IMG/VR virus record: IMGVR_UViG_3300020333_000061
Span: 1 to 53,204 of that record
Reading direction: 5' to 3' (one strand)
Length of the DNA stretch: 53,204 bases
Origin: a virus
Lineage: Duplodnaviria > Caudoviricetes
Both the position numbers and the translations under genes were made by a program. Positions 4,425-51,593 of this stretch are shown one piece after another; position 1 is the first letter of the stretch, and each line of letters starts with the position of its first letter. The notes below the pieces were generated by a model. It worked only from the letters and a program-made list of their open reading frames with translations. It was not told the DNA's origin and did no database searches.

Positions 4425-4433
4425 TAAAATATT

Positions 4434-4739: not shown

Positions 4740-4744
4740 ATATT

Positions 4745-29574: not shown

Positions 29575-30491
29575 AACATCACGGTATTTGGAATGAAAAG
29601 TATCGACCGACTTCTTTGGATACTTATATCGGGAATGAACATTTAAAGTCTAAAGTTAGGATTTTTATAGAAACAAATGACCCGCCTCATTTATTATTTT
29701 ATGGAAGGGCAGGCACAGGTAAGACTACACTTTCAAAGATTATTACAAAGTCTATAGATTGTGAATGTTTGTATATAAATGCATCTGATGAGAATAGTGT
29801 AGATACTGTTAGAGATAAAGTTAAAGGTTTTGCGTCTACATTAGGATTTCAGTCGTTAAAAGTTATAATATTAGATGAGTGTGATTATATCACACCAAAT
29901 GCTCAAGCAGCATTAAGAAACCTAATGGAAACATTTAGTAGACATTGTAGGTTTATTCTAACTTGTAATTATGTAGAGAGAATTATAGACCCAATACAAT
30001 CTAGGTGTCAATCATTTCAGATAGTACCACCATCCAAAAAAGAAGTGGCAGTACATTTATCTGAAATATTAACTAATGAGAATGTAAAATTTGAAGTGGA
30101 TGATATAGCTACAATTATTAATGGAGCATATCCAGATATAAGAAAGGTTATAAATACATCACAAAGACAGGTTGTAGATGGTATTTTACGGATGGATGCT
30201 AGAGAGGTTATTTTAAATGATTATAAGTTACAAATATTAGAAGTTTTAAAATCAAGTAAATCTAAAAAAGAAACATTTAGTGAAATACGACAAATATTAG
30301 CGGACGCAAAGGTTACAGACTTTGCAGATTTTTTTAGATTACTATATGATGAAGTTGATAATTATGGTAGTGGACATATTGCCGAAATTATTTTATTGAT
30401 AGCTAAATATGAACAATCAGATAGTCAGGTAGTTGATAAGGAAATCAATGCTATGGCTATGTTAATTGAAATATTACAGGAAATAAGATGA
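29565..30491 (+). CDS. Clamp loader ATPase subunit (RFC/gp44-like; TTG start)
   Basis: W.EKYRP, GRAGTGKTT, INASDE, LDECD, AQAALR, QSRC. Confidence 0.94.
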   Translation: MEIEHHGIWNEKYRPTSLDTYIGNEHLKSKVRIFIETNDPPHLLFYGRAGTGKTTLSKIITKSIDCECLYINASDENSVDTVRDKVKGFASTLGFQSLKVIILDECDYITPNAQAALRNLMETFSRHCRFILTCNYVERIIDPIQSRCQSFQIVPPSKKEVAVHLSEILTNENVKFEVDDIATIINGAYPDIRKVINTSQRQVVDGILRMDAREVILNDYKLQILEVLKSSKSKKETFSEIRQILADAKVTDFADFFRLLYDEVDNYGSGHIAEIILLIAKYEQSDSQVVDKEINAMAMLIEILQEIR

Positions 30492-31099
30492 AAGATGAAA
30501 AGTATTGGGGTGAAGCTCCTATTAAAAAAATACCTAGTAAAAAACGAGGTGGTGAAGGCGATTATAAACATATAGCAGTAATTGAAAATAAAATTTATTT
30601 TTATGCAGGAGTAAATCGCGATAGTGCAGTAGAACTTAATAAGAAAATTGGAGAGTTACAATCTAAAAGTTTTACTTTAGCTAATAACTTAGATATTGAA
30701 CCGCCAGGTATGCATTTATATATAAATTCTGGAGGAGGGTCGATTACATCAGGTATTTCATCAATGGATACTATACTGAGATGTAAAGTTCCTGTTTATA
30801 CCTATGTTGATGGTTTTGCTGCAAGTGCTGCAACATTCCTTTCAGTAGTAGGTCATAAAAGATTTATGAGTAGACATTCTTATATGTTGATTCATCAGTT
30901 ATCTACAAATTTTTGGGGTAAATATTCTGAGTTCGAAGATGAGAAACAGAATCTTGATTTGATGATGGAAACTATTAAAAGGGTGTATAAGAAACATACA
31001 AAAGTTCCAATGAGAAAAATAGATGAAATTCTGAAACATGATTTGTTGTGGGATGCTAAAACTTGTTTAAAGTATGGATTAATTGATGAGATAATTTAA
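30488..31099 (+). CDS. ClpP-family serine protease
   Basis: YINSGGG, GFAASAAT, MLIHQ, D.LW.A...L.YGLIDEI. Confidence 0.88.
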   Translation: MKDEKYWGEAPIKKIPSKKRGGEGDYKHIAVIENKIYFYAGVNRDSAVELNKKIGELQSKSFTLANNLDIEPPGMHLYINSGGGSITSGISSMDTILRCKVPVYTYVDGFAASAATFLSVVGHKRFMSRHSYMLIHQLSTNFWGKYSEFEDEKQNLDLMMETIKRVYKKHTKVPMRKIDEILKHDLLWDAKTCLKYGLIDEII

Positions 31100-31749
31100 T
31101 GTTTTATTGTTTCGGAGACAGTTGGGGTGAAGGTGCTGAGTTAAAGGAAGATGAAAAACCATTTGTTCATTGGTTAGCAAAAGATTTAGATAAATCATAT
31201 AAAAATTTTTCATATGGAGGCAATTCATATCCCAAGATAGTATCTCAGATATTTGATAACATTCATAAGATTAATAATAAAGATATTGTATTAATAGTTA
31301 TTCCACCCGATATACGATGGATGGAAATGGAAGGAAATAGTGGATTTAGATCTTGGACAGTCGATGATGATCCAGAACGATATATGTCTTGGTTAGGTAA
31401 TAAAACAAAAGTTTGGTTTAGATACCACTCTAGCCTATTTACATATACTATTCAATCAGCATTAGATAGTATTGGTTGTAAGTATTTATTTATGCATAAT
31501 TATGGTGGTGAATTTATTATAGACCGTAGATTTAAATCTTTAATTAATGTTGATAATTTTTTAAATATTAAAAAGTCTTTGACTACATTATTAGGTGGAA
31601 ATGATTATTATGAATCTTGGAATTTAAAATCAGATGGTCCAACCACGAAAATTAAGGGGAAAAGTATATATTTTGAAGGAAATGATGTACACCCAAATGA
31701 ATTAGGACATAAGAGAATTGCAAAATTAATTAAAGATAAGATAATATAA
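31099..31749 (+). CDS. SGNH/GDSL-like hydrolase or acyltransferase
   Basis: FGDSWGEG, NFSYGGNS, DVHPNELGHKRIA. Confidence 0.75.
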   Translation: MFYCFGDSWGEGAELKEDEKPFVHWLAKDLDKSYKNFSYGGNSYPKIVSQIFDNIHKINNKDIVLIVIPPDIRWMEMEGNSGFRSWTVDDDPERYMSWLGNKTKVWFRYHSSLFTYTIQSALDSIGCKYLFMHNYGGEFIIDRRFKSLINVDNFLNIKKSLTTLLGGNDYYESWNLKSDGPTTKIKGKSIYFEGNDVHPNELGHKRIAKLIKDKII

Positions 31750-32822
31750 TGAAACCTCTTTTATCACAATGTTTAATAGGTCATAGATTTGGAAAGATAA
31801 ATGTAAGTAAGGATTATTTTCTTTGTTGTGGGACTCCAGCAATAGGAAATTATGATGTAGATGGTGGGTTTAAGGAATTTTGGAATTCTAAAAAATATAA
31901 TGATTTAAGAAAAGAGTTAAAATATAATTTAGAAGGACAGAATGAAAAATGGAATGGTGATTGTTTTGAATGTCCACATTATGCACAATTAATGATGTTG
32001 AATGAGAGTGGAGAAGTTATAGATGATTTACCTAGAAAAGGACCAAGTGAATTTCAATTTGAAGTAGGAAATCCATGTAATCATAGATGTGATTTTTGTT
32101 GGGGGTGGTCACATACAATGTTGAGTGAAGAAGGTCAATGGAATGGTTGGAAAGAGTGGGCAAAACAAATACTTGACTTGAAAACTTATGTTTCAATTAT
32201 TAATGATTTGAAAGAACTTGGTGGTTGTGAATTGATATCAATAAGTGGTGGTGGCGAACCATTTATTATACCAGATATTATGAAAATGATTGAACACACT
32301 AAAAAATTAGGTTTTAACCTTAAAATATTTACTAATTTTTCAAGGGTTAATTTTAAAGATATAGATAATTTTATTGAATGGGGGGTGGATAGGTTTGAGG
32401 TTAATATATCAGCAGGAACAGAAGAAACTTATTGTAAGGTAAGAAAATTAAAATCTAAGGATTGGAATTTACTTATTGATAATCTTACTTATTTAAATGA
32501 AAAAAGAAAAGAATTAAATTTATCATCACCCATTAAATATGTAGTTATTGTAACTAAAGAGAATATAGAAGAAATAGATGAAATTTTTGAATTGGCAATT
32601 AAACTTGGTTGTTGTTTTATTGATTTTAGAGATTTAGTTTCACAAGGAGTTTATAAGGGGGAAGATTTATTACCATTAGAAAAACAGGTTGAAGTGTTTA
32701 ATGAAAAGTTTTTTAAGAATATAAATAAACACGATTTTAAGGAAGTTAAAGATGAGTATTATTTTTATTCAGAAAGATTAAATATGGGAGTTTTTAATGA
32801 ATGTATTAGTTATAGGGGATAG
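31749..32822 (+). CDS. Radical SAM enzyme with N-terminal SPASM/twitch-like domain
   Basis: CNHRCDFC and GGGEP core preceded by C..CC..IGN..FKEFWNS..CFEC. Confidence 0.88.
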   Translation: MKPLLSQCLIGHRFGKINVSKDYFLCCGTPAIGNYDVDGGFKEFWNSKKYNDLRKELKYNLEGQNEKWNGDCFECPHYAQLMMLNESGEVIDDLPRKGPSEFQFEVGNPCNHRCDFCWGWSHTMLSEEGQWNGWKEWAKQILDLKTYVSIINDLKELGGCELISISGGGEPFIIPDIMKMIEHTKKLGFNLKIFTNFSRVNFKDIDNFIEWGVDRFEVNISAGTEETYCKVRKLKSKDWNLLIDNLTYLNEKRKELNLSSPIKYVVIVTKENIEEIDEIFELAIKLGCCFIDFRDLVSQGVYKGEDLLPLEKQVEVFNEKFFKNINKHDFKEVKDEYYFYSERLNMGVFNECISYRG

Positions 32823-33591
32823 CTGTGAGGACATTTTTATTTATGGAGATATAGAAAGAATAAGTCCAGAAGCACCAGTACCAGTTTTTAAACCAACACA
32901 TGAAGAAAAAAATGGTGGTATGGCTAGAAATGTTGCGGAAAATGTTGAAGCATTAGATATGCATATTCATACTGTAACAAATAAAAATAGTATTACAAAG
33001 ATACGATATGTAGAGAATCGATCTGGTCAAATGGTATTAAGGGTAGATGTACATGACCATTGTGAGAGAGTTGATGAGAGTTTATTAAAAGGACTTACAA
33101 TAAATAAATTTAAACACCCACCATTTGGATTTGGTTCAAGTACTGAGGATTATTATGATGCAATCATTATTTCAGATTATTGTAAAGGGTTTTTAGAAGA
33201 ATCTGATATTCAACATATTTGTGAAAATAATAAGAATGTATTTATTGATACTAAAAAGAAACTTGGTGAATGGATTAAAGACGCAAATTTTATTAAAATA
33301 AATGAATTAGAATATAAAAAGAACCATGAATTATTATCTGATGACGGATTTAAAGAAAAACTTATTGTTACATTAGGTAGTAAAGGTTGTAGATATAAAG
33401 GAGTGGAATATCCAGTAAAAGAAGTTCCAGTAAAAGATGTTAGTGGAGCAGGAGATACATTCATTGCAGGATTAGTTCGTGGTTATTTAGATACAAATAA
33501 TATAGAAAGTGCAATAGAATTTGCACAAGAGTGTACCACCCATGTAGTACAAAAACACGGAGTAGCAACAGTTAATTTAGAGGAGTTATAA
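32797..33591 (+). CDS. HldE/RfaE kinase domain (PfkB family sugar-phosphate kinase)
   Basis: RISPEAPVP, ISDYCKG, VTLG.KG, DVSGAGDTF. Confidence 0.88.
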   Translation: MNVLVIGDSCEDIFIYGDIERISPEAPVPVFKPTHEEKNGGMARNVAENVEALDMHIHTVTNKNSITKIRYVENRSGQMVLRVDVHDHCERVDESLLKGLTINKFKHPPFGFGSSTEDYYDAIIISDYCKGFLEESDIQHICENNKNVFIDTKKKLGEWIKDANFIKINELEYKKNHELLSDDGFKEKLIVTLGSKGCRYKGVEYPVKEVPVKDVSGAGDTFIAGLVRGYLDTNNIESAIEFAQECTTHVVQKHGVATVNLEEL

Positions 33592-33592
33592 A

Positions 33593-33838
33593 ATGAGTAC
33601 AAAACCAATGAAACCATTAGCCAAACCACAAAAACAAGTAGATTTGTCAAAAGCAGATACTTTGAAGTGTGATGAATGTGGTAATTATCTTTTTATTAAT
33701 TCATATGTAATAAAGAAGGTTTCTGCAATAATATCACCGACTGGTCAGGAAGTAATAGCGCCAGTTCAAGTGTATAGTTGTGGAAATTGTGGAGTGGTTC
33801 CAAAATTATTTACTGAGGGTACTGGGTTAGATTTTTGA
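33593..33838 (+). CDS. Small zinc-ribbon protein
   Basis: CDECG..CGNCG; SD AGGAG upstream. Confidence 0.75.
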   Translation: MSTKPMKPLAKPQKQVDLSKADTLKCDECGNYLFINSYVIKKVSAIISPTGQEVIAPVQVYSCGNCGVVPKLFTEGTGLDF

Positions 33839-34389
33839 AAATATTAGCTTGTTTATCTGGAGGAGTTGAAAGTACTTATGGTGTATATAATTTATTACAG
33901 AATACAGACCATGAAATAGATATATTTCATTTGTATTTTAGAAATCATCCACGATATGAAGGTGAAACTGAAGCGTGTGAACACATTGTAAATTGGTTAG
34001 AAAGTAATACAAGAAAATTTGATTGGAAATCTGCTGACCTAAGTCATAGTGGCGTTGATGAAATTACACAACCACCACATTCATCAGATATATGTTATAC
34101 GATAGTAACTTCTGCGAATATTTCTATTGATGAAAAAGACTATGATGAGGTTAGATTCTTTATAAATAAAAAAGAGTGGGATTCCGCGATAGAAGATAGT
34201 ATTCCTACATTTGATCATCCATTTATGGTAAATTTATTTAATCTAATATTAAGTAGATTTCCTACAATTGATACTAAATTAGGTTTTGATAGAAATGTTG
34301 GTACGTTAAATAAAAAAGAAATATACGAAAAAATACCTGAGGAATTACGAAAATTTATTCATAGTAATGATAAGGAATATAATGTATAA
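33835..34389 (+). CDS. PP-loop (QueC-like) adenine nucleotide alpha hydrolase (TTG start)
   Basis: N-terminal LSGGVEST. Confidence 0.6.
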   Translation: MKILACLSGGVESTYGVYNLLQNTDHEIDIFHLYFRNHPRYEGETEACEHIVNWLESNTRKFDWKSADLSHSGVDEITQPPHSSDICYTIVTSANISIDEKDYDEVRFFINKKEWDSAIEDSIPTFDHPFMVNLFNLILSRFPTIDTKLGFDRNVGTLNKKEIYEKIPEELRKFIHSNDKEYNV

Positions 34390-35797
34390 ACGAGTAGGTA
34401 ATGGACTTTTTGTTTTAGGTGGGAAGTATATTGATTTGTATAATGAAATTCAAATTAAAACTAAAAAGTTTGTAGAGGAAATTTTTGATGGAGAAGAATT
34501 ATGGACACCTTCTATATTATCTCTAGATAATACAGAAAAAAGTAATTATTTAGATTCTTTTTCTAATCAGGCTCAAATGATTCATAGACATTTAGATGGT
34601 TCTGATATAGGAATGAATTCACCAACTGTATGTTATAATTTATACGCATTATATGCAGATGATGTAGTCGATGGAAATAAAACTTATGTGATGACTGGTA
34701 AATGTAATAGGTTTGAAGAAGGCGAATTACATGATTTGACGAGGTTAATACAATTTACTGGTCAAGAGATTGTACATATAGGTAGTTATGATTATGTAGA
34801 GGATTGTTTTGTAAAATCGGTGAATTATGTAAAAAAAATATTTGATTATTTAGAATTAGATTATAAATTCGAAGTCGCGAATGATCCTTTTTTTGGTGCA
34901 AAATCTGAAGTTAAAAAACGAGCTCAACGAGTCAATGGGTCTAAAATAGAATATAAGTTATATTTTCCAAATGAAGATAAATATCTCCCAGTAGGATCAT
35001 TTAATTTTGTAGGTAATGCTTTTCATGATAGATTTAATATAAAAAATACTCAAACAGAGGATGTTGCTTCTGGTTGTTGGGGGTGGGGATTAGAAAGATT
35101 TATTTATGCATTGATAAGTCAAAAAGGAGAAAATGTTATTTTTAATTATCCTATTACGTTAGATGAAGATAAAAAACATGGATATAAGAATGTTATAGAG
35201 AATGAAGAAGGTTGGTACAGACTAGGTAAAGAAAACTGGTGGTTCGCTAAAAATAATATGGAAAACTATAAAGATATAGATGTAGATTTTAAAGATATCA
35301 AATTTGAAGTTATTACTGATTTAGATTCTTTAGATAGACGTAAAGTTGAAATTATATTGGGATTGAAGGAATGTAATAAAGATATAGGTTGGAAGTATAA
35401 TTGGACATGGAAAGATGCGGAGAATAGAATAAAAGATGGACATATTTTAAAAGCAGCATTTCATAATGGAATGGCAATTCATTGGGATTGGTATTTTACT
35501 AATAGTTTTATAATAAAAGATCACGATTCTTGGAGTGCCGTAGTTAATAAGTTACCTAAAGATTATCATTATTCAGCACATTGGTATTGTCATCCAAAAT
35601 ATAGAAGTAATAGAAAATATCCTACATTTATAAAAGATTTTATTTCAGCTTCATATAATTGGAGTTATAATAATGGTTACACTACTGATGTAAATTATCA
35701 AGATGGTTGGAATTGGAAATCTTTAAAGATTGTGAAAAAGATGGGACACGTTGGTTCTAATTGGATAGAAGAATTTGGTGAAATAAATGAATTATGA
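34382..35797 (+). CDS. Atypical SerRS-like class II ligase (amino acid:[carrier protein] ligase type) fused to a GNAT-like domain
   Basis: SPTVCY, CNRFEE..RL.QF..QEIV.IG, ANDPFFG, K.E, SFN, SGC.G.GLER; no tRNA-binding domain; C-terminal HPKYR..N.KSLKIVKKMG. Confidence 0.78.
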   Translation: MYKRVGNGLFVLGGKYIDLYNEIQIKTKKFVEEIFDGEELWTPSILSLDNTEKSNYLDSFSNQAQMIHRHLDGSDIGMNSPTVCYNLYALYADDVVDGNKTYVMTGKCNRFEEGELHDLTRLIQFTGQEIVHIGSYDYVEDCFVKSVNYVKKIFDYLELDYKFEVANDPFFGAKSEVKKRAQRVNGSKIEYKLYFPNEDKYLPVGSFNFVGNAFHDRFNIKNTQTEDVASGCWGWGLERFIYALISQKGENVIFNYPITLDEDKKHGYKNVIENEEGWYRLGKENWWFAKNNMENYKDIDVDFKDIKFEVITDLDSLDRRKVEIILGLKECNKDIGWKYNWTWKDAENRIKDGHILKAAFHNGMAIHWDWYFTNSFIIKDHDSWSAVVNKLPKDYHYSAHWYCHPKYRSNRKYPTFIKDFISASYNWSYNNGYTTDVNYQDGWNWKSLKIVKKMGHVGSNWIEEFGEINEL

Positions 35798-36461
35798 AAA
35801 TATCGTTTTATCGAATCTTAATATTTATCTTGACAATTATGAAAATGTATTTGGACATTCACACAGACCACTTGATTTAAATACAGAAAGATATAAAAAA
35901 AATATAGCATTTTTTGGATGTTCTCTCACATATGGTGAAGGAGTAAAAAATGAAGATACTTATCCTTCACAAATCCAAAAACTATCTAATGATGAATTCA
36001 ATTGTTTGAATTTTGGAGTTCCAGGTGGGAGTATAGATTTAGCTTATGTCATTTACAATAAAGTTATAAAGAAACTTGATATAGATTGTGTAGTTATTCA
36101 ATGGCCAAATTTTGACAGAAGAATGTATTTTAATGAAGGTGAATATGTTGGATATTATCCAAATGATGGAAAGGATATAACAAAACCTTTTAGTAAAATT
36201 GCTGATTGGGATTATGTTATTAGTAGAAATTTATCTAATTTACAAGTGATAAATTCATTTAAAAAAGTTTATAATTTATCACCGAAGATTGGACACGAAC
36301 AAAGAGAGTTATTTGAATTATATAATATTGATAATATTTTAAAGTTTCCATTCTATTTAGATACTGAAAATAAATACAGACTTAAAGACGGCCATCCAAA
36401 TGAATTATGGTATGATAATTATTCGAAATATTTGTATAAGGAATTAATAAGAGATGAATGA
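35787..36461 (+). CDS. SGNH-like protein
   Basis: FFGCSLTYGEG, NFGVPGGS, DGHP. Confidence 0.72.
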   Translation: MNYENIVLSNLNIYLDNYENVFGHSHRPLDLNTERYKKNIAFFGCSLTYGEGVKNEDTYPSQIQKLSNDEFNCLNFGVPGGSIDLAYVIYNKVIKKLDIDCVVIQWPNFDRRMYFNEGEYVGYYPNDGKDITKPFSKIADWDYVISRNLSNLQVINSFKKVYNLSPKIGHEQRELFELYNIDNILKFPFYLDTENKYRLKDGHPNELWYDNYSKYLYKELIRDE

Positions 36462-37089
36462 CAATGTTATAGCGTTTGGTTGTTCATTTACTTTCGGTGA
36501 TGAATTAGATGATTTACCAAATTGGTATGAAGATATGGAAGATGAGAGAAATTTTATGCCACTTAAATTAAAATATCATAAACCATCTAAAAAAAGTTAT
36601 CCATATATTCTTGGGAATTTATTAAGTTGTAAAGTTGAAAATTATGGTTGGAGAGGTGGTAGTAACGATAGAATCTTCAGAACATTTTTTGATCATATTT
36701 TGAACAATAAAAAGAAAAGTATTTATGTAATTCAATGGACATTTTCACATAGAACCGAAATTTGGTCTAACAAAGGTGGATTCTATAGTGGAATAACACT
36801 TAATTTGATTGAAGAAGATAAAAATGCTAAAGAGTATTATGAAGAATATTATGATGAAAATGATGTTAAACGTAGATTAGTGAGATATATGTGGTCGGTA
36901 GATGCTATATGTAAAGAATTTAATCAAAAGTTGTATCAATTTCATCCAATTGCAGATGAACAAATAGAAAATGAATTACCAAAGTCAGTTTTAGATACAA
37001 AGAAAATTTTAGAATTAGTAGATGGAAAAATACATCCTACTGAGCAAGGACATAAAAATTTAGCAAAATATATAAGAAGTTTAATATGA
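36454..37089 (+). CDS. SGNH-like protein
   Basis: FGCSFTFG, NYGWRGGSNDRI, HPTEQGH. Confidence 0.72.
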   Translation: MNDNVIAFGCSFTFGDELDDLPNWYEDMEDERNFMPLKLKYHKPSKKSYPYILGNLLSCKVENYGWRGGSNDRIFRTFFDHILNNKKKSIYVIQWTFSHRTEIWSNKGGFYSGITLNLIEEDKNAKEYYEEYYDENDVKRRLVRYMWSVDAICKEFNQKLYQFHPIADEQIENELPKSVLDTKKILELVDGKIHPTEQGHKNLAKYIRSLI

Positions 37090-37808
37090 ATTATAGAATT
37101 TCAGATTATCCATCTAATACGATTTGTAAATGGACAACTGCCGATTCTTTGGAGTTATTTGAGAAAAATACTATTAAGTATGGTAATGATAATAAATCAA
37201 TAAGACATTATAAAGAAAATCCAATAAAATATAGTTTTAACAATTATGGATTCAGGACACCAGATGATTTTAATGAAGTAGATGAAGGTAATGTTTTTCT
37301 TGGGGATAGTAATACAATGGGTACTGGACATCATTTAGAAAATACCTGGTCATATAAAATAAATCAAGATGTAGGTGGAAAGTTTTGGAATCTTAGTCAA
37401 GGTGGACATGGCATACAGACTGATTATAGATTATTATATGGATGGAAAGATCATTTAAAGATAAAAAATATATTTCATTTTACTATTAATCACTCTAGAT
37501 TTGAGTTTTTTAACAAAAGTGAATTACTTCAAATGAATAATTGGAGTGAGTTCAAACATAAAGATTTTTATTTAGATTTTCTTTGTGATGAAGGATATTG
37601 TGAATTTATAGAGGAAACTTATATTAATGCTATTAAAGGATTGTCAAAGGAAATTGGATGTAATTATTATTATGTAAAATTAGCGGAATCATTTTATGAC
37701 TATGATAAATCTACAGATGATTCATTGGAGGCACGAGATTTATCACACATGACGGTTAAATATCAAAATTGTATTTATGAAAAGTTTAAGGAGTTAAATG
37801 TTAAATAA
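37086..37808 (+). CDS. SGNH-like protein
   Basis: FNNYGFR, FLGDSNTMG, NLSQGG, ARDLSH. Confidence 0.68.
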   Translation: MNYRISDYPSNTICKWTTADSLELFEKNTIKYGNDNKSIRHYKENPIKYSFNNYGFRTPDDFNEVDEGNVFLGDSNTMGTGHHLENTWSYKINQDVGGKFWNLSQGGHGIQTDYRLLYGWKDHLKIKNIFHFTINHSRFEFFNKSELLQMNNWSEFKHKDFYLDFLCDEGYCEFIEETYINAIKGLSKEIGCNYYYVKLAESFYDYDKSTDDSLEARDLSHMTVKYQNCIYEKFKELNVK

Positions 37809-38334
37809 TTTATTAATTGTTGCACATCCAGATGATGAGACAATTTTTGCAGGAAATTCATTATTGACTTATGGATTTATTCATAAAGTTATTTGTGTCA
37901 CTAATGGAGATAATACAGTTAGAAGGTCTGAGTTTGAAAGTGTAATGAAAAGAGTAAAGGTAGATTATGAAATATGGAATTTTCATGATGAATGGAAAGT
38001 GGATTTAGATACAGAAGGTATTAGAAAGAAGTTACATAAAACATTAAGAGAGGAAAATTGGAATATGGTTTTAACTCATAATGAAGTTGGTGATAATAAT
38101 TATGAACATCCACATCATAGACAAGTTTTTGAGTGTGTAGAGAAAGAAATTCCAGATTTGGATAACTTATATTGTTTTGATAATCACGGAAAAGGTTTAA
38201 GTTTGGATGAGGTTAAACAAAAATTAAAATTGTTAAATTATTATAAAAGTCAAATGAAAGAACTTGGGATAATATATTTACCTATGTTAGAAGGTTATTT
38301 CTATAATGAATCTTTTATAAAGTATCAAAAGTAA
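37798..38334 (+). CDS. PIG-L/LmbE family N-deacetylase
   Basis: VAHPDDE, VTNG, R..E, HPHH, YKSQ. Confidence 0.88.
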   Translation: MLNNLLIVAHPDDETIFAGNSLLTYGFIHKVICVTNGDNTVRRSEFESVMKRVKVDYEIWNFHDEWKVDLDTEGIRKKLHKTLREENWNMVLTHNEVGDNNYEHPHHRQVFECVEKEIPDLDNLYCFDNHGKGLSLDEVKQKLKLLNYYKSQMKELGIIYLPMLEGYFYNESFIKYQK

Positions 38335-38372
38335 TGATATTTATTAATATATAGCGACCATTACTTGGAGAA
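38329..38372 (+). promoter_or_regulatory. Putative promoter motif inside an 8-bp inverted repeat, followed by SD
   Basis: AAGTAATG (38329-38336)..GATATTTATT..CATTACTT (38359-38366), then GGAG. Confidence 0.45.
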
Positions 38373-38378
38373 TTAAAT

Positions 38379-39977
38379 ATGAAAAGTACAGTAGTTAGTT
38401 TTGATTGGATCGCGTCAAGTGGATCACTAAAATTAACAGAAATAAATACAGATGTAAGTTTGGGTGGATATAGCCGTCCAGAATATGGAGTAGATTTTGA
38501 CGCTCTGGCACAGTATTGCTCAGATCAAAGTTTAACAGAAGTTAAAGTACATCACTCCGATCAAGCATATTATACAATAGATTGGATTTCTAATAGTATA
38601 ACATCTATATCAAATGAAGTCTTTGCAAAACTTTCATCAAGTCTTGCTACGCACGATATTTCTGCTTCAATATACCTAGATGAAAATAATTATGAGGATG
38701 GGTTAGATGAAATAGATAGTGGTACTACATTGGATTTGAGAGTAACTAGTTGTATAAATAGTAAATTAGATTATCATGCAGTTGATAAAGAAAATTTCGT
38801 AGATTTTGCAAATGGTATTGGTAGTGGAAGTTTACTGTCAGAAGTAGGATCATCTCAAATTACATCTAATAATGCTACAGGAGTTCCAGATTTTGTTTGG
38901 AAAGTACCCACTATGGATAGTGGAACTGGTTTATCATTTTATGAGTCTAGTGATAATAATAGTACTATATCCTCGTCAAAAGAGGGCGTAGCATTTGTTG
39001 AAAAATATTATCCACCTGATAATGATAAATGGGGATATTTTGCAGGAGATATTAGTTATAAAGTAGTATTGACGGAAGATGGTACCGTGATTCCAATTAG
39101 TAGTCATAGAAGTGAAGGTGAGAGAGTAGTTTCATTTAGTAGAGTATCAGAAGAAGATTACTCTAATAAAGATTTGGTATTACGGCCTAAATTAATACTT
39201 GCTGGTGTTTGTGGTGAGAGTACAGATATAACATTGGTAGATGGTAGTACAAAAACACCATTACAAATACATTCATCAAGTATTTCTGATAATTCAGATA
39301 GTGTTAAAACTGTACAAATTGATGATTTAAATTTGGATTCGTTTGAATATAATACACCAAGTACTAGACAAGGATCTTATACATTATATACAGGTAGTTT
39401 TAATTTTACAACTGGAAGTAACCACTTTATGTTTATTCCAAAATATAGTGAAAATTGTGTAACTATTGATAGTACTGTTTTTGATGGAGAAACATTAATA
39501 CCAGTTGAGATGCTTTCAGATAGTGGAAGTACTTGGCAAATAAAGAAGGCATCTGATGTAGTTGTAGGTGATAAATATTTAAGTTCAAGTATGGATAAGG
39601 GAACTGTAGGTAGTGTGGGTGATGCATCAAATCAAGTATTAGTACATCCATCAAGTACAAATCCTAAAAGTGATAATAGTGATATGTATTTTCAACGTAG
39701 TATGTTTTGTGGTGATATATTGACTTTAGCAGAAAATAAATTTTATACCATAAGTGAACCACACATTGGAGATAAGTTTGCCACTACAAGTGCTTCAAAC
39801 GCTGAGAAAAATTCTTATGTTTCTACTTCAAATCAACAATGGGCATTATTGAATCATAATAGTGTAAGTGGAACTACATATAATTGGTCTAATTATAGTA
39901 CCAACGTAGCACAGTATACTGAGAATATATTAACTCAAATGGTAGCATCATTCAGTTCTTCTTTGTGGGAGTATTAA
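38379..39977 (+). CDS. Circularly permuted ATP-grasp-like domain + Hint-like domain + 38-aa C-terminal peptide
   Basis: N-terminal SFDW..LKLTEINTD; later FVWK..SGTGL..FVEKY; Hint-like VCGESTDITLVDGSTK, WQIKKASDVVVGD, FYTISE..DKF, LLNHN-S. Confidence 0.6.
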   Translation: MKSTVVSFDWIASSGSLKLTEINTDVSLGGYSRPEYGVDFDALAQYCSDQSLTEVKVHHSDQAYYTIDWISNSITSISNEVFAKLSSSLATHDISASIYLDENNYEDGLDEIDSGTTLDLRVTSCINSKLDYHAVDKENFVDFANGIGSGSLLSEVGSSQITSNNATGVPDFVWKVPTMDSGTGLSFYESSDNNSTISSSKEGVAFVEKYYPPDNDKWGYFAGDISYKVVLTEDGTVIPISSHRSEGERVVSFSRVSEEDYSNKDLVLRPKLILAGVCGESTDITLVDGSTKTPLQIHSSSISDNSDSVKTVQIDDLNLDSFEYNTPSTRQGSYTLYTGSFNFTTGSNHFMFIPKYSENCVTIDSTVFDGETLIPVEMLSDSGSTWQIKKASDVVVGDKYLSSSMDKGTVGSVGDASNQVLVHPSSTNPKSDNSDMYFQRSMFCGDILTLAENKFYTISEPHIGDKFATTSASNAEKNSYVSTSNQQWALLNHNSVSGTTYNWSNYSTNVAQYTENILTQMVASFSSSLWEY

Positions 39978-39994
39978 ATAAAAAAAGGTTGTAA

Positions 39995-40933
39995 GTGGAT
40001 TACATTAGAGATAATAAAGATAAACCATTCATATATAAAAAACCATTTGATTATACTGTAGAAATACATTTAACTCATATGTGCAATTTTTTTTGTAGTG
40101 GGTGTAGTCATTATTCCAATTATAAACTTAATGGTTATTTATCTACTGAAAGATTTAAACATTATCTTGAAACTTGGAGTGATAAATTTAATAAATTACC
40201 GTTGGAATTTCGTTTACTCGGTGGAGAGCCAACTCTACATAGAAATTTAGTTGAGCTTATTGAGTTATCAAGAAAGTATATGCCTGATAATAATATTCTA
40301 CTTTTTACAAACGGAACTTATTTACATAAACATAAAAATTTAAAAGATGTTTTAATTGATAATAAAATAGTTTTAAAATTAACAGATCATTCACAAGAAA
40401 AAAAGTATCGTGATAAAATAGATCCAATTAGAGAAATATTATTAAAGTGGTCAGATGAAGGATTAGATTATCGTTCATATGATTATTCAACCGATTTTGG
40501 TTTTTCATCTGAAGCTACGGATAAAGGTGGTGGTAGGGGAGATAATACAAGTATTTGGAGAAAGCAATATAAAGGAGATGGCGTAACCATGAGACCTTTT
40601 GAAGATAACGAACCAAAAAAGAGCTATGAAATTTGTTGTTGTAGTTGGGCAAAGGGTGGGATAGCAAATATTCAGTTGTATGAAAATAAATTATGGAAAT
40701 GTCAACATATTGCATATTTAAAAGATGTTTTAACAAAATTTGGATTACAGACACATCCAAAATGGACACCATACCTTAAATATAAACCTTTAAGTAGTAA
40801 TGTAACATTTGATGAGATGGTTAGTTGGATGAAAAGAGAAGAAGAAGATGTTTGTAATATGTGTCCTGCTTATGATGACAAACGAGAAACGGTTTTAGAT
40901 AAAGATGTATTTGGAGAACGAAGATATGCATAA
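39995..40933 (+). CDS. Radical SAM enzyme (GTG start)
   Basis: CNFFCSGC, LGGEPTLH, FTNG; extra Cys in ICCC, WKC, CNMC. Confidence 0.9.
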   Translation: MDYIRDNKDKPFIYKKPFDYTVEIHLTHMCNFFCSGCSHYSNYKLNGYLSTERFKHYLETWSDKFNKLPLEFRLLGGEPTLHRNLVELIELSRKYMPDNNILLFTNGTYLHKHKNLKDVLIDNKIVLKLTDHSQEKKYRDKIDPIREILLKWSDEGLDYRSYDYSTDFGFSSEATDKGGGRGDNTSIWRKQYKGDGVTMRPFEDNEPKKSYEICCCSWAKGGIANIQLYENKLWKCQHIAYLKDVLTKFGLQTHPKWTPYLKYKPLSSNVTFDEMVSWMKREEEDVCNMCPAYDDKRETVLDKDVFGERRYA

Positions 40934-41735
40934 TATTTTTTGGTGTGGTGGCATCGATTCCACTTATTTGGTTTGTAAGCATTTGATTATAAATAAAGAA
41001 CCAATTGAGACTTATTATTTAAATTTTGAATGTGATGGTTATTATAAACCTTTTCCACTAGGCAGAGATAGTAAAGAGGTAGAAGTTAAAGTTATGGAAA
41101 AGTTAAGGGAAATGATAATTAAACAATTTCCTTATACTGAAAAGTTATTTCCACCAACAATAATGATAGATGAATTTCCAATAAATAAAGAAATATATAA
41201 GAAACTTAAATTTTTACATGAAGAACATCAATATAGATATAGGATAATATCACAAGAGTTATATATGATACAATATTCATTGGATGAGAATAAAATATTT
41301 GAATATTCTCTTGAAGATGGAATGTCCCTTGGAGTGGACGTAGGATATTTACCGACTGCAAAATTATTAAAAGAAAATTTCACAGAAGATTTTACAATAT
41401 CAACAGAAAAAATTCCTGAGTTGGAAATTTTAAAAAATTTACATCTTCCACTGTTTGAAACTTGGAGAAAGGATATGGTTGAAGAATCAAGAAAATATGA
41501 TTTTACAAATATACTAGAGAATACTTGGTCTTGTAGGTGGCCAAAATCTAATGGAGATATTTGTGGAAAATTAGAGAAAAATGGGGATGGTTTTGATTGT
41601 ACACATTTTATGTATGTTGAATTTGATAAACAACCTCAGTCAGAGATTGAAGAAGGATTTGTACGTTATTATAAAGATAATGAGTACGAAATTATTAAAA
41701 GAAAAATAAATTATCACGATATATTAAATGATTAA
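40926..41735 (+). CDS. PP-loop (QueC-like) enzyme
   Basis: WCGGIDST, LPLF...K.DM, TWSC..P....CG..C; start moved to ATG 40926. Confidence 0.7.
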   Translation: MHNIFWCGGIDSTYLVCKHLIINKEPIETYYLNFECDGYYKPFPLGRDSKEVEVKVMEKLREMIIKQFPYTEKLFPPTIMIDEFPINKEIYKKLKFLHEEHQYRYRIISQELYMIQYSLDENKIFEYSLEDGMSLGVDVGYLPTAKLLKENFTEDFTISTEKIPELEILKNLHLPLFETWRKDMVEESRKYDFTNILENTWSCRWPKSNGDICGKLEKNGDGFDCTHFMYVEFDKQPQSEIEEGFVRYYKDNEYEIIKRKINYHDILND

Positions 41736-42897
41736 AGATTATATAGTAAGTTTATTGATGGGATTTTCAGCAGGAGTTCCATTATTGATGACACTTTCTA
41801 TTCTACAGGCCTGGATGAAAGACTTTGGAATAGATTTGTCTATGATTGGTATATTTGGATTGGTGGGATTACCATATTCATTGAAGTTTACTTGGGCTCC
41901 ATTTTTGGATAGATTCTCATTACCATTTTTAGGTAGAAGAAGGGGTTGGTTATTATTAAGTCAAATTTTTATAATTTTAACTATGGTTGGAATATATTCG
42001 ATTGATATTTCCACTCAATTAATTCCTTTGGGAATGCTGTGTTTAATGTTATCATTCTTTTCTGCAACACAGGATATATTAGTAGATGCATATAGAAGAG
42101 AAAATGTGTCAGAACAACATTTACCTATGTCATCATCTTTATATGTTATTGGATATAGAGTTGGTATGGCAATAGTGGGTTCGTTGGGATTTATTTTATC
42201 TGATTATATGACATTTAATTTTGTATTTTTATGTTTATCGAGTTTAATGGGTGTTGGTATTATTACTACATTATTTTGTGATGAAGGTGATTATGTGGTT
42301 AAAGAAAGAGAATCAATAATAGAACCATTGTTAGATTATTTTCGTAAAAATAAAGCCATAGTTATATTATTATTTCTTTTTATGTATAAAATTGGTGATA
42401 TGTTAGCATTTTTTATGGGAACACCATATTATATGGATTTGGGATATACAAAATCTCAGATTGGATATATTAAATTTATTTCTACTTGGATGATTTTATT
42501 TGGAAGTTTTGTTGGTGGGGTTTTAATGGTCAAGTATAATAATATAATGAAAGGATTATTTTATTTTGGTTTGTTACAAATGATATCCACATTTGGATAT
42601 GTTATATTGGGTTGGGTAGAGCCGAGTCTTGTTTCACTTGGTATAATGTGGTCATTTGAAACCTTTTGTGCAGGATTAGGTATGTCAGTATTTATATCAT
42701 ATATTGCGTTACTTACTAATGTAAAGTTTACAGGAACACAATATGCCTTGTTGTCAAGTTTTGTTGCGATACCAAGAACTTTGTTTACTTCACAAACAGG
42801 ATTTTTAGTAGAGTCAATAGGTTGGGAATATTATTTTATATTTTGTACTTTACTTGCTATACCTGGATTAATATTACTGAAGTATTTAGATGAGTAA
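41728..42897 (+). CDS. ampG: AmpG-family MFS permease
   Basis: GFSAGVP, LPYSLKFTWAP.LD, GRRRGW, SATQDI.VDAYR, TQYALLSS; highly hydrophobic throughout. Confidence 0.88.
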   Translation: MIKDYIVSLLMGFSAGVPLLMTLSILQAWMKDFGIDLSMIGIFGLVGLPYSLKFTWAPFLDRFSLPFLGRRRGWLLLSQIFIILTMVGIYSIDISTQLIPLGMLCLMLSFFSATQDILVDAYRRENVSEQHLPMSSSLYVIGYRVGMAIVGSLGFILSDYMTFNFVFLCLSSLMGVGIITTLFCDEGDYVVKERESIIEPLLDYFRKNKAIVILLFLFMYKIGDMLAFFMGTPYYMDLGYTKSQIGYIKFISTWMILFGSFVGGVLMVKYNNIMKGLFYFGLLQMISTFGYVILGWVEPSLVSLGIMWSFETFCAGLGMSVFISYIALLTNVKFTGTQYALLSSFVAIPRTLFTSQTGFLVESIGWEYYFIFCTLLAIPGLILLKYLDE

Positions 42898-43447
42898 CTA
42901 CATAGTAAAAACAATCTTTACCAAAAAAGAATGTGATAAAATTCTTGAAATGGATAGAAGTTTTGTTAACAGATTTTATCATACTAATACATCATTTAAA
43001 AAAACATGGTTAAATGGAACACTTAGACCAGCAGAAGATAATATTTTAGATGAGGTAGTAAACGCTGAAGATTGGGTGTATGATAGACTAATGGAAAATA
43101 AGGACATAGGAAATTTTGCAACTTGTGAAGGATTATGGCCGTTAATTTTTAAAGAGTATCAAGTAGGTGATGAGATTGGAATGCATTTTGATAATGCTTT
43201 TGGTATAAGGAGAGTGACAGTTTCTATATGTTTAAATGAGGATTATGAGGGTGGGTTTTTACAATTTCCAAGTTGGAAATTTGATATGGATACTGGAAAA
43301 GATAATTTTAAAATAGTAGATGTAAAATTAAAAGTAGGACAAATGGTACAATTTCCGTTAATGTTATTACATAGGATTGCACCAATTACAAAGGGTGTTA
43401 GAAAGCAATTGGTAACTTGGTATACGGGAGAAGTTTTAAATTGGTAG
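42890..43447 (+). CDS. 2OG-Fe(II) oxygenase (prolyl-hydroxylase-like)
   Basis: HFD..LNEDYEGG..FP..LHRIAPITKGVR..LVTW. Confidence 0.88.
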   Translation: MSNYIVKTIFTKKECDKILEMDRSFVNRFYHTNTSFKKTWLNGTLRPAEDNILDEVVNAEDWVYDRLMENKDIGNFATCEGLWPLIFKEYQVGDEIGMHFDNAFGIRRVTVSICLNEDYEGGFLQFPSWKFDMDTGKDNFKIVDVKLKVGQMVQFPLMLLHRIAPITKGVRKQLVTWYTGEVLNW

Positions 43448-43453
43448 ATTTAA

Positions 43454-44029
43454 ATGATTGAAATAAGTGAATCAGTAATAGTTACAAAAGTTTTTAGTGA
43501 ATCAGAATGTCTTAAAGTGTTTGATTCTAAAGGCGAATTTGTTACAAGCCCACAAGATCAACAAGATGATGGAAAATATATAATTGTTCCAGATGAAAGT
43601 GATTATACTTTTGGTCATACTAATTTTCCATATTGGCATGTAGAATTTTCAGATGAAAACGAATGGTTTGTTAAAAAATTGAGAGAACACGTTACAGAGA
43701 TAAATGATAAATTTTTTAAATTTAAAAATAATGGTTTGTGGAATATGGGAATAAAGGAATATTCCGATCATCCAGACCATAATAATAGTTGTTCATGGCA
43801 TTTTGATGATATGAGTAGAGGTAAAAGGTTAGGATGTTCAACTACATTACATAATGCTATTGAAGGTGGGGAATTTGAAATTTTTAATGGTGAAAAAGTA
43901 TCTATAGATATAAAAGTGGGTGAAGTTGTAGTATTTCCTACTTGGCTTTTCCATAGAGTTAGCCCAGTACTTAAAGGAAAACGACTTTCACTGATCACTT
44001 GGATGAAGGGAGATCCCATTGATTTTTAG
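43454..44029 (+). CDS. 2OG-Fe(II) oxygenase (prolyl-hydroxylase-like)
   Basis: WHFD..EGGEF..FP..FHRVSPVLKGKR.SL.TW. Confidence 0.88.
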   Translation: MIEISESVIVTKVFSESECLKVFDSKGEFVTSPQDQQDDGKYIIVPDESDYTFGHTNFPYWHVEFSDENEWFVKKLREHVTEINDKFFKFKNNGLWNMGIKEYSDHPDHNNSCSWHFDDMSRGKRLGCSTTLHNAIEGGEFEIFNGEKVSIDIKVGEVVVFPTWLFHRVSPVLKGKRLSLITWMKGDPIDF

Positions 44030-44038
44030 GGTAGCGAT

Positions 44039-45016
44039 ATGATAAGTATAATATTTCATGATGTATTTAGTAGATTTCCAGAAGGAGTTGCTCATGAAGA
44101 TGAGGGAAAAGTTTTGTCCTACGAAGATTTTGGAAGAACAGCAAAATATTTGAAACAAAATAATATAGATTCATTTTCAGAAAATTTACCAGATGATTTA
44201 AAAGATAGAGGGGTGTATTGTTCTTCTAAATATGATAAAGTTATAGTAGTATCTCGTTCAATTGTGGTAGAGCAAATGTTATATAGTTTAGTTCAAAGTA
44301 ATGTTTATTATTATGGAGGACTTGCTATAACTAAAAATGTTGTTTTAGATTTTTTAAAAAGAAAGGGATTTAATGTACCAGATTTCGTTGTTAGTCCATC
44401 TACAAGAGAAGAGTTATTTGATAAGTTAGGTGATGATATTGTTGCAAAACCTATTGAGTATCTTACCCAGAAGGGTAAACTTGTACATAGAATATCTCAA
44501 AGTACAAAAAATATAGATTTAAATAGGTGGTTATTTCAAAAGTATGTAGGTAAAAAGATACAACCTTCATGGACACCTAGAGTTAACAGTTTATTTGGAA
44601 AAAATATTTCATATCATTCTAGTAAGTATTCTATAGCTGAGAATGAATCTTATGATAAAATTTCTAAACTTGAATATTATGCCAAAGCATGGTTAGAGGG
44701 TGCTAAATTTTTAACTACAAAGGTTGATGATGAAATATTAGATATATCGAAAAAAGTGTCAAAAGAACTTACTACACATTTTAGATGTGGAATTATTGGT
44801 ATAGATTTTGTAACTGATGATTTTAATATTCCCTGGATAGTAGAATGTAATTCTTCTAATGTTAGTTTACGGTCAGGAAAAAGTGTAGGATATCCAAAAC
44901 GACTCCAAGCAGTAGTTGATAAATTGGACTTAGACTATAAACCAGTTGATTCAATTTTAAATACACCTAAATTAATATCAGAAGCTTGTGTAAATTTTAT
45001 TGAGAATTTGATATGA
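44039..45016 (+). CDS. ATP-grasp fold ligase (RimK-like)
   Basis: K..L...GFNVP, IVAKP, LFQKYV, GIDFV..WIVECN. Confidence 0.75.
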   Translation: MISIIFHDVFSRFPEGVAHEDEGKVLSYEDFGRTAKYLKQNNIDSFSENLPDDLKDRGVYCSSKYDKVIVVSRSIVVEQMLYSLVQSNVYYYGGLAITKNVVLDFLKRKGFNVPDFVVSPSTREELFDKLGDDIVAKPIEYLTQKGKLVHRISQSTKNIDLNRWLFQKYVGKKIQPSWTPRVNSLFGKNISYHSSKYSIAENESYDKISKLEYYAKAWLEGAKFLTTKVDDEILDISKKVSKELTTHFRCGIIGIDFVTDDFNIPWIVECNSSNVSLRSGKSVGYPKRLQAVVDKLDLDYKPVDSILNTPKLISEACVNFIENLI

Positions 45017-45681
45017 AAAAATTAAATAAAATATATGATTTAGAAAAACTACAAATAGATAGAAAGTTTGTAGAAGAAAGATTTAAGTATGAGGATGGTG
45101 CTTTTGGACATTGTATATCATTACCGAGTATTTATGAGATAGCAGAATCACATAAAGAGCATCATAATAATGTACCATTGAGGGGAGTGTTAGATTATAC
45201 ACCATATTTCAAAGAAATTTTTGATAGTTTTGAAACAGAGATAACTGGATTTAGATTGTTGAGAAGAAAAGCACATTCATCTTATGGATTACATGAAGAT
45301 ACTGATATTGGTGAGGATGTAAAAAGAGTTCAAATACCCATTATTACAAATGATGATTGTTGGTTGGCGGCAACGGATTTAGATTATATACCAGAAGATA
45401 TTAGATTACTCTATGAAAAAGATGGAATAAAGAATGGTATCAACTGGACGGATGAAGTTCCTTATGATAAAGATGGTACTGCATTCAAGAACTTTAAAGA
45501 AAGATTTAAAGGACTCTATACATTGGTGCAATTCAAACCTGGAGTAATGTATCACGTTACATTTGCGAAGAAAATACATGGTTTATTTAATGAAGGTGAT
45601 ACAGATAGAATTACATTATTAATTGATGTAAAGGTAAATGATTGGTTGCTAGAATTTATTGAAGGGTTTGAATATTTTTAA
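45013..45681 (+). CDS. Asp/Asn beta-hydroxylase-like Fe(II)/2OG enzyme
   Basis: RL..LHED..RVQIPIITN..H..N.G..DRITLLID. Confidence 0.75.
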   Translation: MKKLNKIYDLEKLQIDRKFVEERFKYEDGAFGHCISLPSIYEIAESHKEHHNNVPLRGVLDYTPYFKEIFDSFETEITGFRLLRRKAHSSYGLHEDTDIGEDVKRVQIPIITNDDCWLAATDLDYIPEDIRLLYEKDGIKNGINWTDEVPYDKDGTAFKNFKERFKGLYTLVQFKPGVMYHVTFAKKIHGLFNEGDTDRITLLIDVKVNDWLLEFIEGFEYF

Positions 45682-48262: not shown

Positions 48263-48298
48263 GTATATATTTATATATATGTATATATGGGATAAGAA

Positions 48299-51592: not shown

Positions 51593-51593
51593 T

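Follow-up and report, generated by a model that had tools for sequence, protein, structure and literature searches.

The IMG/VR viral contig IMGVR_UViG_3300020333_000061, analysed here over its full length of 53,204 bases (hereafter the window; completeness estimate about 29% of the genome), carries 18 open reading frames (ORFs; i01 to i18) on the + strand at 31099..45681, between a ClpP-like gene and the gene for a gp62-like clamp-loader subunit. Domains were called with Pfam, PHROGs and NCBIfam models at curated cut-offs, complemented by motifs read by eye and by sequence and profile searches of the PDB. On the left, the gp44-like clamp-loader ATPase, a backbone gene (29565..30491, +), matches phrog_168 (2.1e-79) and the RFC small subunit model NF001679 (7.5e-62), and is followed by the semi-variable ClpP-like protease (30488..31099, +; PF00574, 4.3e-30). 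On the right, the gp62-like clamp-loader small subunit, likewise a backbone gene (45708..46133, +), matches phrog_225 (1.1e-17). These matches bear out the flanks named in an earlier sequence-only reading of this DNA, which had counted 19 co-oriented genes between them. The tight + strand stretch stands, with spacings of -29 to +44 nt between ORFs and a coding share of approximately 100%, but the count is 18, and co-orientation is not special to this island because all 52 main ORFs of the window lie on the + strand.

The island is fully phage-like in composition. Its GC content is 28.7% against 31.4%, its codon frequencies correlate with those of the backbone at r = 0.97, and there is no compositional break. 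A repeat search found no direct or inverted repeats bracketing the stretch, and the 18 ORFs gave no match to integrase or transposase families in Pfam, PHROGs or NCBIfam; with neither present, the stretch does not qualify as a discrete mobile element such as an integrative island or transposon. No Rfam family was detected in the stretch, and a promoter and terminator scan stayed at the level of shuffled sequence (127 sites against 124 +/- 12, and 3 against 3.3). PADLOC returned only generic matches to the radical SAM core and to 2-oxoglutarate (2OG) enzymes, and a megablast comparison of 17.2 kb with 50,697 phage records gave 0 matches.

A gp44 search of viral contigs returned 564 relatives, from which 80 loci were kept; further scans, among them one with i06 that added 22 loci, enlarged this set, and the A8 scan added no new context. 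Both gp44 and gp62 were present in 70 loci, and once loci missing either flank had been dropped and identical intervals removed, 51 distinct gp44-to-gp62 intervals remained. They span 235 to 16,241 bp (15,217 bp in the window, of which the cargo-bearing stretch makes up 14.6 kb), and 26 of them, each under 2.5 kb, contain nothing but a Zn ribbon gene, with or without ClpP. It is this spread, together with the 26 near-empty intervals, that identifies the site as a variable slot. The 81-aa Zn ribbon protein (i04; 33593..33838, +) is encoded in 50 of the 51 intervals, the empty ones included. In the closest cultured phage, Microcystis phage Mel-JY01 (polB 46% and gp44 42% identical), an 81-aa ORF is all that separates gp44 from the clamp-loader A subunit (gp62), which represents an empty slot. 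The short intervals with the Zn ribbon and the Mel-JY01 arrangement together indicate that the ancestral state was empty and that i04 belongs to the backbone, not to the cargo among which the sequence-only reading had placed it.

Around the slot, gene order is conserved. In Mel-JY01 and in those related loci that extend far enough, it reads polB-u241-(methyltransferase)-gp44 on one side and gp62-DUF1599-PDDEXK-SLOG-RHH followed by two glycosyltransferases (GT) on the other, and the gp62-like gene is kept after the slot in every relative whose locus reaches that far. ClpP is found in only some relatives and its place shifts. One sub-lineage (L092-L100 and others) has its ClpP-like gene, which shares 26-28% identity with that of the window, after gp62 and not before the Zn ribbon, so that even ClpP changes place around the clamp-loader pair. 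The slot thus shows what is expected of a hyperplastic region, namely a conserved flanking core order, content that differs among close relatives and an existing empty state. As such, we consider it very probable that the stretch represents a hyperplastic cargo slot, here filled, that splits the clamp-loader genes, in agreement with the earlier view of accessory cargo, enriched in ligases and tailoring enzymes, within an otherwise adjacent gp44, Zn ribbon and gp62. The phages with this slot form an abundant, uncultured, marine, T4-like lineage.

The cargo did not arrive as one block, and the earlier proposal of a single acquired module for one multistep chemistry has to be abandoned in this respect. 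Relatives whose gp44 is 90-98% identical to that of the window differ in cargo, which lies at three points (between gp44 and ClpP, between ClpP and the Zn ribbon, and between the Zn ribbon and gp62) and therefore on both sides of a backbone gene. When the window is compared with its closest relative, L089, by blastn, the backbone is about 92% identical and i06-i11 91%, against 76-78% for i12-i15; i01-i02 are replaced in L089 by 4.2 kb of other cargo (PhyH, a radical SAM enzyme, a methyltransferase and two GT25), i16-i17 are also replaced, and i05 is a clean single-gene indel. Among the 51 intervals i17 occurs in none, i05 in three and i01 in one. At the three insertion points, cassettes come, go or give way to others along gene boundaries.

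Two groups of genes are nonetheless linked. A hidden Markov model (HMM) of the i11 N-terminal domain finds a member in 24 of the 25 intervals of at least 2.5 kb (21 with default filters and three more with filters off) and in none of the 26 shorter ones. The i06 HMM matches in 17 of the 25 long intervals, with i11 present every time (17/17), so that i06 is always paired with i11 in what we call nucleus (a). Nucleus (b), an amino-sugar-type extension, consists of a PIG-L deacetylase, a radical SAM enzyme, a QueC-like PP-loop ATPase and an AmpG permease (i10, i12, i13 and i14), which occur together in all four complete intervals with at least one of i10, i12 and i14, and also in the partial locus L099. 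The remaining cargo, comprising four DUF6071/SGNH proteins, two or three Fe/2OG-type oxygenases, a PfkB kinase, a second radical SAM enzyme, a second PP-loop protein and a probable ATP-grasp ligase, forms an interchangeable periphery. The sequence-only reading had named co-occurrence with an 'ATP-grasp-Hint' gene as a check, and this is borne out for the Hint-domain gene i11, although the ATP-grasp part of the label is unconfirmed. It had also held that independent, patchy distributions would speak against a common module; such distributions were observed for the periphery, but not for i06 with i11 or for i10-i12-i13-i14.

The product of i06 (34367..35797, +) combines a SerRS-like aminoacyl ligase (residues 1-262; PF00587, 37.7 bits) with a GNAT domain (residues ~269-465). 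An AlphaFold2 (AF2) model with a mean pLDDT of 83 has two domains, predicted to resemble an amino acid:[carrier protein] ligase and a GNAT fold, and the N-terminal one has the class II aminoacyl-tRNA synthetase (aaRS) catalytic fold without a tRNA-binding domain. Residues C89, E117 and C237 are invariant in 15 homologues and align to the Cys/Glu/Cys of Methanopyrus kandleri SerRS, positions which we take to be the SerRS Zn ligands. In this lack of a tRNA-binding arm and in the retained Cys/Glu/Cys, i06 is like the amino acid:[carrier protein] ligases (Bll0957 of Bradyrhizobium, PDB 3MEY/4H2S) and the methanogen-type SerRS. It differs from them in being fused to a GNAT domain and in that no carrier protein gene was seen nearby; the island itself has no free ORF of 45-125 aa. 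Full-length two-domain homologues reach down to 37% identity, and among 36 homologues the two-domain form occurs only in sequences without a cellular name, whereas single-domain relatives of about 300 aa are found in cellular metagenome-assembled genomes (MAGs) of Patescibacteria, Asgard archaea and others. Single-protein locus scans with i06 and with AmpG recovered close relatives only.

The partner protein i11 (38379..39977, +) consists of an N-terminal domain of about 275 aa, a Hint domain from Cys278 to an HN pair at ~493-494, and a tail of about 38 aa. As a single sequence it has no Pfam match and nothing significant in the PDB, but a profile of 18 family members matches PDB Hint domains (6y75, 8.9e-6; 9cop, 6.4e-4; 1jva, 0.035), the VMA1 intein among them, and many relatives have one to three Pfam Hint domains (PF07591, PF14890, PF01079). 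One family member ends in a Peptidase_S74 domain and one carries NTP_transf_2. Cys278 occupies the first Hint position, the HN pair near the end is followed by Ser in the window, and Asn494 is invariant in 15 close homologues, as would suit the Hint superfamily of inteins, bacterial intein-like domains, pretoxin-HINT and Hedgehog proteins. The i11 Hint domain lies C-terminal to an uncharacterised N-domain and, in contrast to inteins in their usual setting, is not embedded in a conserved host protein. The N-domain family is rare: 1.84 billion proteins yielded 108 cluster representatives. Atlas neighbours of i11 with ATP-grasp/GshA labels scored 0.91-0.94, under 0.95, and are a lead only; hhalign of the N-domain family to i17 gave a probability of 0.7%, and i11 has no similarity to the 701-aa ORF at 11614-13719. 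Complex prediction of i06 with the i11 N-domain scored 0.00, which gives no verdict and is uninformative either way. The i11 N-domain HMM also matches, at 1e-9 to 1e-13, short stand-alone ORFs of 186-303 aa that have no Hint domain (L089/L004:12201-13112, L104:6400-7248 and L102:9185-9745); the N-domain therefore exists on its own too.

In nucleus (b), i10 (37798..38334, +) is a PIG-L/LmbE-family de-N-acetylase (PF02585, 3.9e-17, 63.4 bits against a cut-off of 28.2). The radical SAM protein i12 (39995..40933, +), with a Cys-rich C-terminal part, scores 35.2 bits against PF04055 (cut-off 29.5) and also matches Fer4_12; its PDB matches are 7wzv (3.6e-6) and, as a weak likeness, the aminoglycoside radical SAM enzyme BtrN (4m7t, 2.5e-4). 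The QueC-like PP-loop ATPase i13 (40905..41735, +) has a CGGIDST motif and a C-terminal Cys cluster, and one distant relative (P0205) contains PF06508 QueC. The permease i14 (41728..42897, +) belongs to the AmpG family of the major facilitator superfamily (MFS; TIGR00901, 5e-116, 387.8 bits against a subfamily cut-off of 350). Its closest cellular relatives, 41% identical, come from Gammaproteobacteria MAGs at 30% GC and may be taken as a weak hint to the host; the AmpG neighbours in three MAG loci have no other island gene in common.

Among the peripheral genes, i01 (31099..31749, +; PF13472, 1.1e-4, below the cut-off; GDS and DxxH motifs), i07 (35787..36461, +), i08 (36454..37089, +; DUF6071, 2.2e-3) and i09 (37086..37808, +; GDS motif) are four paralogues that merge into one SGNH/DUF6071 family in an iterated HMM search. 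Ser11 and His194 are invariant in this family, seven of its 16 members match DUF6071 (best 1.4e-12) and three match GDSL lipase models (~1e-4), but no member from the window comes up to any cut-off, and a PDB search with i09 gave nothing significant. The product of i07 is 100% identical in amino acid sequence in L113/L089. The other radical SAM protein, i02 (31749..32822, +), has an N-terminal Cys-rich, SPASM/twitch-like domain and scores 67.3 bits against PF04055 (cut-off 29.5); SPASM matches at 2.9e-3 over residues 22-76, NF033640 reaches 65 bits against a cut-off of 170, PqqE at 0.0026 is the single PDB match, and homologues in L104/L105 are 45-47% identical. The CxxxCxxC motif is visible in both i02 and i12, and their matches to QueE, MoaA and viperin cover the generic core only, far under the cut-offs (46.8 bits against 180). 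A prokaryotic viperin was rejected for both proteins (NF038283, 46.8 and 35.5 bits against 180; the PADLOC pVip match covers only profile positions 6-152 of 257).

The kinase i03 (32797..33591, +) belongs to the PfkB family and is RfaE-domain-I-like (PF00294, 1.4e-19, 71 bits; TIGR02198, 2.6e-37, below the cut-off; phrog_8133, 2.4e-84). Its identity to the 'carbohydrate kinase' encoded in the sugar islands of cyanophages is 39-47%, and in the heptose/lipopolysaccharide (LPS)-type islands of these phages the kinase family adjoins a nucleotidyltransferase, a phosphoheptose isomerase and epimerases. A small PP-loop-like ATPase is encoded by i05 (33835..34389, +; SGGVES motif; phrog_1550, QueC-like, 1e-4). 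Neither i05 nor i13 has a Pfam or NCBIfam match, and PDB profile searches gave nothing significant for either; both PP-loop calls depend on SGGxxS-type motifs read by eye. The oxygenase i15 (42890..43447, +) is an Fe(II)/2OG enzyme of the P4H/PiuC-like type (PF13640, 9.3e-8, 33.4 bits against a cut-off of 27; phrog_61, 9e-17), i16 (43454..44029, +; phrog_61, 2.3e-15) is its paralogue (BLASTP to i15, 2.9e-14), and i18 (45013..45681, +) is a cupin/2OG-like protein identified by an HxD...H motif only, with H94, D96 and H189 invariant in five homologues and a weak PDB match to a 'beta-hydroxylase' (7v4f, E 0.41). Finally, i17 (44039..45016, +) is a probable ATP-grasp ligase, with PF14398 at 2e-4 and 21.1 bits against a cut-off of 26.8, an ExN-type motif seen by eye and an E of 0.0083 to the RimK family; PDB profiles gave no ATP-grasp at E up to 1.

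With these results, the two radical SAM enzymes, the HldE-like kinase, the PIG-L deacetylase, the AmpG-like permease and the SerRS-like/GNAT protein of the sequence-only reading are upheld, the last by its Pfam match and its two-domain fold. Its four SGNH-like proteins hold as a family and its two PP-loop proteins as motifs, with a QueC model in one distant relative of i13. Of the three claimed Fe/2OG oxygenases, i15 is confirmed, i16 is supported as its paralogue and the third remains at the level of a motif; of the two claimed ATP-grasp proteins, i17 is probable and the N-domain of i11 is unconfirmed.

Cargo of the same kind recurs in relatives. The slots of other loci contain GT25, GT2 and GT32-like glycosyltransferases, sulfotransferases, Methyltransf_24, GNATs and a DegT aminotransferase, as well as arrays of one to four 2OG genes, C39-like peptidases (found beside the Hint protein), an AMP-binding enzyme, FabA, a PLP decarboxylase, a HAD phosphatase and a Vut_1 transporter. 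These enzyme classes recur across lineages in which gp44 is only 63-70% identical. The slot of L079 holds 10 kb of mostly unannotated ORFs. In L102:11173-12469 the Vut_1/YhhQ-type transporter (3e-46) adjoins a DUF5020 protein at the place that corresponds to AmpG in the window, which indicates that transporters recur as cargo.

Hyperplastic regions of T4-like phages and the LPS/sugar islands of cyano- and pelagimyophages have been described (PMC7029224, PMC2993671). As far as the portions consulted of these sources go, the slot is similar to them in that variable cargo, including sugar-related and 2OG genes, lies between conserved core genes and differs in content between close relatives. The PfkB 'carbohydrate kinase' family of i03 is also present in P-SSM2 and S-SM2. 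The published islands, by the same partial account, lie in the structural region or at the boundary of replication and structural genes, whereas the present one lies inside the gp44-gp62 pair, and those portions do not mention its hallmark genes, namely the aaRS-like-GNAT fusion, the N-domain-Hint protein and AmpG. A literature search, with supplements outside its scope, found no description of the gp44-gp62 slot or of these genes.

The explanation we favour for the whole, a hyperplastic slot with two linked nuclei and a chemistry of amino-sugar aminoacylation, is in our estimate equally likely to be right or wrong. Its chemical part, in which PIG-L exposes an amine of GlcNAc type, to which i06 adds an aminoacyl group before tailoring follows, is tentative and by itself doubtful; the mechanism is inferred entirely from families and folds. 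A GlcNAc-type substrate would be imported by AmpG or made in the cell, and PIG-L would remove its N-acetyl group. The aaRS-like domain of i06 would then make an aminoacyl-adenylate and subsequently a thioester, and the GNAT domain would transfer the aminoacyl group to the freed amine. Amide or amidine chemistry could follow through the PP-loop proteins, i17 and perhaps the N-domain of i11, while oxidation by the radical SAM and 2OG enzymes, O-acyl editing by the SGNH proteins and phosphorylation by the PfkB kinase would diversify the product, probably a glycoconjugate or an amino-sugar amide, which would alter the envelope of the infected cell or feed the conserved glycosyltransferases of the phage.

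This logic resembles that of two known pathways. In the biosynthesis of mycothiol and bacillithiol, a GT4 glycosyltransferase (MshA/BshA) and a PIG-L enzyme (MshB/BshB) act with, in mycothiol, an aaRS-like ligase (MshC) and a GNAT (MshD). The island ligase, however, is of class II (SerRS-like) and theirs is of class I (CysRS-like), the glycosyltransferases are backbone genes here, and PIG-L is absent from minimal slots. Membership was rejected on these different aaRS classes and on the model scores (MshB, E 0.0067 and 16 bits against 224; MshA, 32 bits against 462), and the resemblance appears to be a likeness of logic, not membership. In butirosin tailoring, BtrD is a PIG-L deacetylase, BtrN a twitch radical SAM dehydrogenase and BtrJ an ATP-grasp enzyme. 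The island similarly has a PIG-L enzyme, a probable ATP-grasp ligase and, in i12, a match to BtrN, but the similarity is weak, and the window has no aminocyclitol synthase or aminotransferase.

Several points weigh against the favoured explanation. Substrate, product and activity of the island are all predicted. Seven intervals of 3.6-5.5 kb are minimal slots with i06 and i11 and without the PIG-L/AmpG extension, so that nucleus (a) does not need an amino sugar. The substrate of i14 is uncertain even if the protein is an AmpG family member, because the subfamily cut-off was reached and that of the equivalogue NF008238 was missed (286.5 bits against 756). A reading of 61 distinct small ORFs from related slots, by eye only, revealed no carrier protein for i06. 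The N-domain of i11 has no assignable fold: an AF2 model built with 15 close homologues has a pLDDT of 36 and is unusable, and none of 11 family members gave a meaningful Pfam match or an ATP-grasp match at E up to 5. Moreover, the first Hint Cys is replaced in nine of the 18 aligned i11-family members, the distant ones; this loss and the variable residue after HN make classical splicing unlikely. The neighbours of the slot (DUF1599, SLOG, Mom and methyltransferases) suit a nucleic-acid target equally well. Finally, the contigs are metagenomic assemblies and assembly could cause some of the mosaicism, although the same arrangements recur in several samples.

If all 18 genes formed one coherent biosynthetic cluster, they would make a single modified peptide or small molecule, RiPP- or siderophore-like (RiPP, ribosomally synthesized and post-translationally modified peptide), exported by the MFS protein. 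The tight packing with overlapping ORFs would fit, as would the combination of a radical SAM enzyme bearing a SPASM/twitch-like domain with a probable ATP-grasp, 2OG and GNAT enzymes and, in relatives, C39-like peptidases beside the Hint protein. However, near-identical backbones differ in gene content, i17 and i05 have 0 and 3 occurrences in 51, the closest relative has other cargo in place of i01-i02 and i16-i17, the stretch encloses a backbone gene, and the MFS protein belongs to a family of importers. In addition, a precursor- or carrier-like small ORF was seen, by eye, neither in the window nor among the 61 of related slots, and we consider a single cluster quite unlikely. At the opposite extreme, the mosaic distribution over three insertion points and the very different cargo of relatives such as L079 could mean a patchwork of unrelated auxiliary genes that share no pathway, in a slot that merely tolerates insertions. 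The perfect linkage of i06 with i11 (17/17) and of i10-i12-i13-i14 (4/4), together with the recurrence of the same enzyme classes across lineages with distant gp44, makes this unlikely too.

Other rivals concern the target. The cargo might decorate virion or other phage proteins, with the Hint protein as a self-cleaving structural or scaffold component. P4H-type 2OG arrays, GT25 and GT32-like glycosyltransferases and sulfotransferases in the slots of relatives are consistent with this, and so is the i11-family member that ends in Peptidase_S74, a self-cleaving tail-spike chaperone. This is improbable, given that the slot lies in the replication module and not in a structural one, that no collagen-like Gly-X-Y runs occur in five large upstream ORFs checked, and that AmpG, PIG-L and the PfkB kinase indicate small sugars. 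Alternatively, the kinase, QueC-like PP-loops, radical SAM enzymes and ligases might build a modified base or nucleotide that protects phage DNA. The position within replication genes would suit such a hypermodification, as would the neighbouring DUF1599 ('nucleotide modification associated domain 1'), SLOG/DprA-like, two GT4, Mom and N6/N4 methylase genes, the contact of the i13 family with QueC and the Vut_1/YhhQ-type transporter in the L102 slot. Against it, the island gave no TGT/DpdA, QueD, FolE, hydroxymethylase or aGPT-Pplase-type model match in Pfam, PHROGs or NCBIfam, and the radical SAM matches to QueE, MoaA and viperin do not extend beyond the generic core; only about 29% of the genome is covered by the window. 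We regard a modified base or nucleotide as a rather poor prospect.

A bolder variant of the favoured reading, which we consider very improbable, takes i06 and i11 as a virus-specific system of tRNA-independent aminoacyl transfer coupled to Hedgehog-like autoprocessing. Here, the Hint domain would make a thioester at the end of the N-domain, to be resolved by an aminoacylated amino-sugar nucleophile that the aaRS-like-GNAT enzyme and the tailoring enzymes of the island would supply. The N-domain would be covalently tagged with a custom adduct or anchored to a cell-wall fragment, much as cholesterol is attached to Hedgehog, and the swappable genes would serve to diversify the adduct on it.

If the slot reading is right, an abundant marine phage lineage keeps in its replication module a plug-in site for amide-forming and sugar-tailoring enzymes. 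The slot would then be a natural library of enzyme combinations around two little-known proteins, the aaRS-like-GNAT ligase and the rare N-domain-Hint protein, and, should the proposed role of i06 be true, a testable case of tRNA-independent aminoacyl transfer in viruses. Even gp44 and gp62, which normally adjoin, can be separated by 15 kb of cargo. The correction of the single-cluster idea matters for genome-mining tools that score phage gene neighbourhoods.

Near-identical DNA to the central 8.5 kb of the island (34367-42897, the stretch searched) was found at a share of at least 0.64 in 15 runs, possible source samples included. Marine metagenome runs from at least 10 studies other than the possible sources contain such DNA as well. 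Contigs from RNA libraries (X16, X17, X18 and X20) hold short pieces only, some identical to the window, and cannot show transcription.

Several further features of the window and of related loci were observed. The segment at 46135-53113, kept after gp62 in loci that reach it, encodes DUF1599, a PD-(D/E)XK nuclease, u151, a SLOG/DprA-like protein, RHH, two GT4 and a GT2, and the annotation of Mel-JY01 places a PD-(D/E)XK nuclease and glycosyltransferases after its clamp-loader genes. A second variable slot, between DUF1599 and the PD-(D/E)XK nuclease, is present in L029:6758-10382 (also in L035 and L030), with a GFO/IDH oxidoreductase, Ldh_2 (5e-103), a CMP-sugar-type cytidylyltransferase and a MORN-repeat protein as cargo. 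Upstream of the island lies the ORF of a glutamine-synthetase-like protein (24158-25351; Gln-synt_C, 1.5e-13; Gln-synt_N, 1.8e-9), possibly a further amide ligase; the ORF shares 92 nt with the end of the ribonucleotide reductase ORF. At 18223-20578, a Mom-family DNA modification protein (PF25680, 3e-50) immediately precedes a 505-aa N6/N4 methylase with a long insert between two conserved halves (phrog_67, residues 4-497 against profile positions 122-350). A 283-aa ORF at 14155-15006 has a match to glycosyl hydrolase family 6 (cellulase/cellobiohydrolase type; PF01341, 1.8e-44), an enzyme that is unusual near a phage replication region. At 1602-9622, two ORFs of 940 and 1625 aa without Pfam or PHROG match flank a small baseplate-wedge-like ORF.

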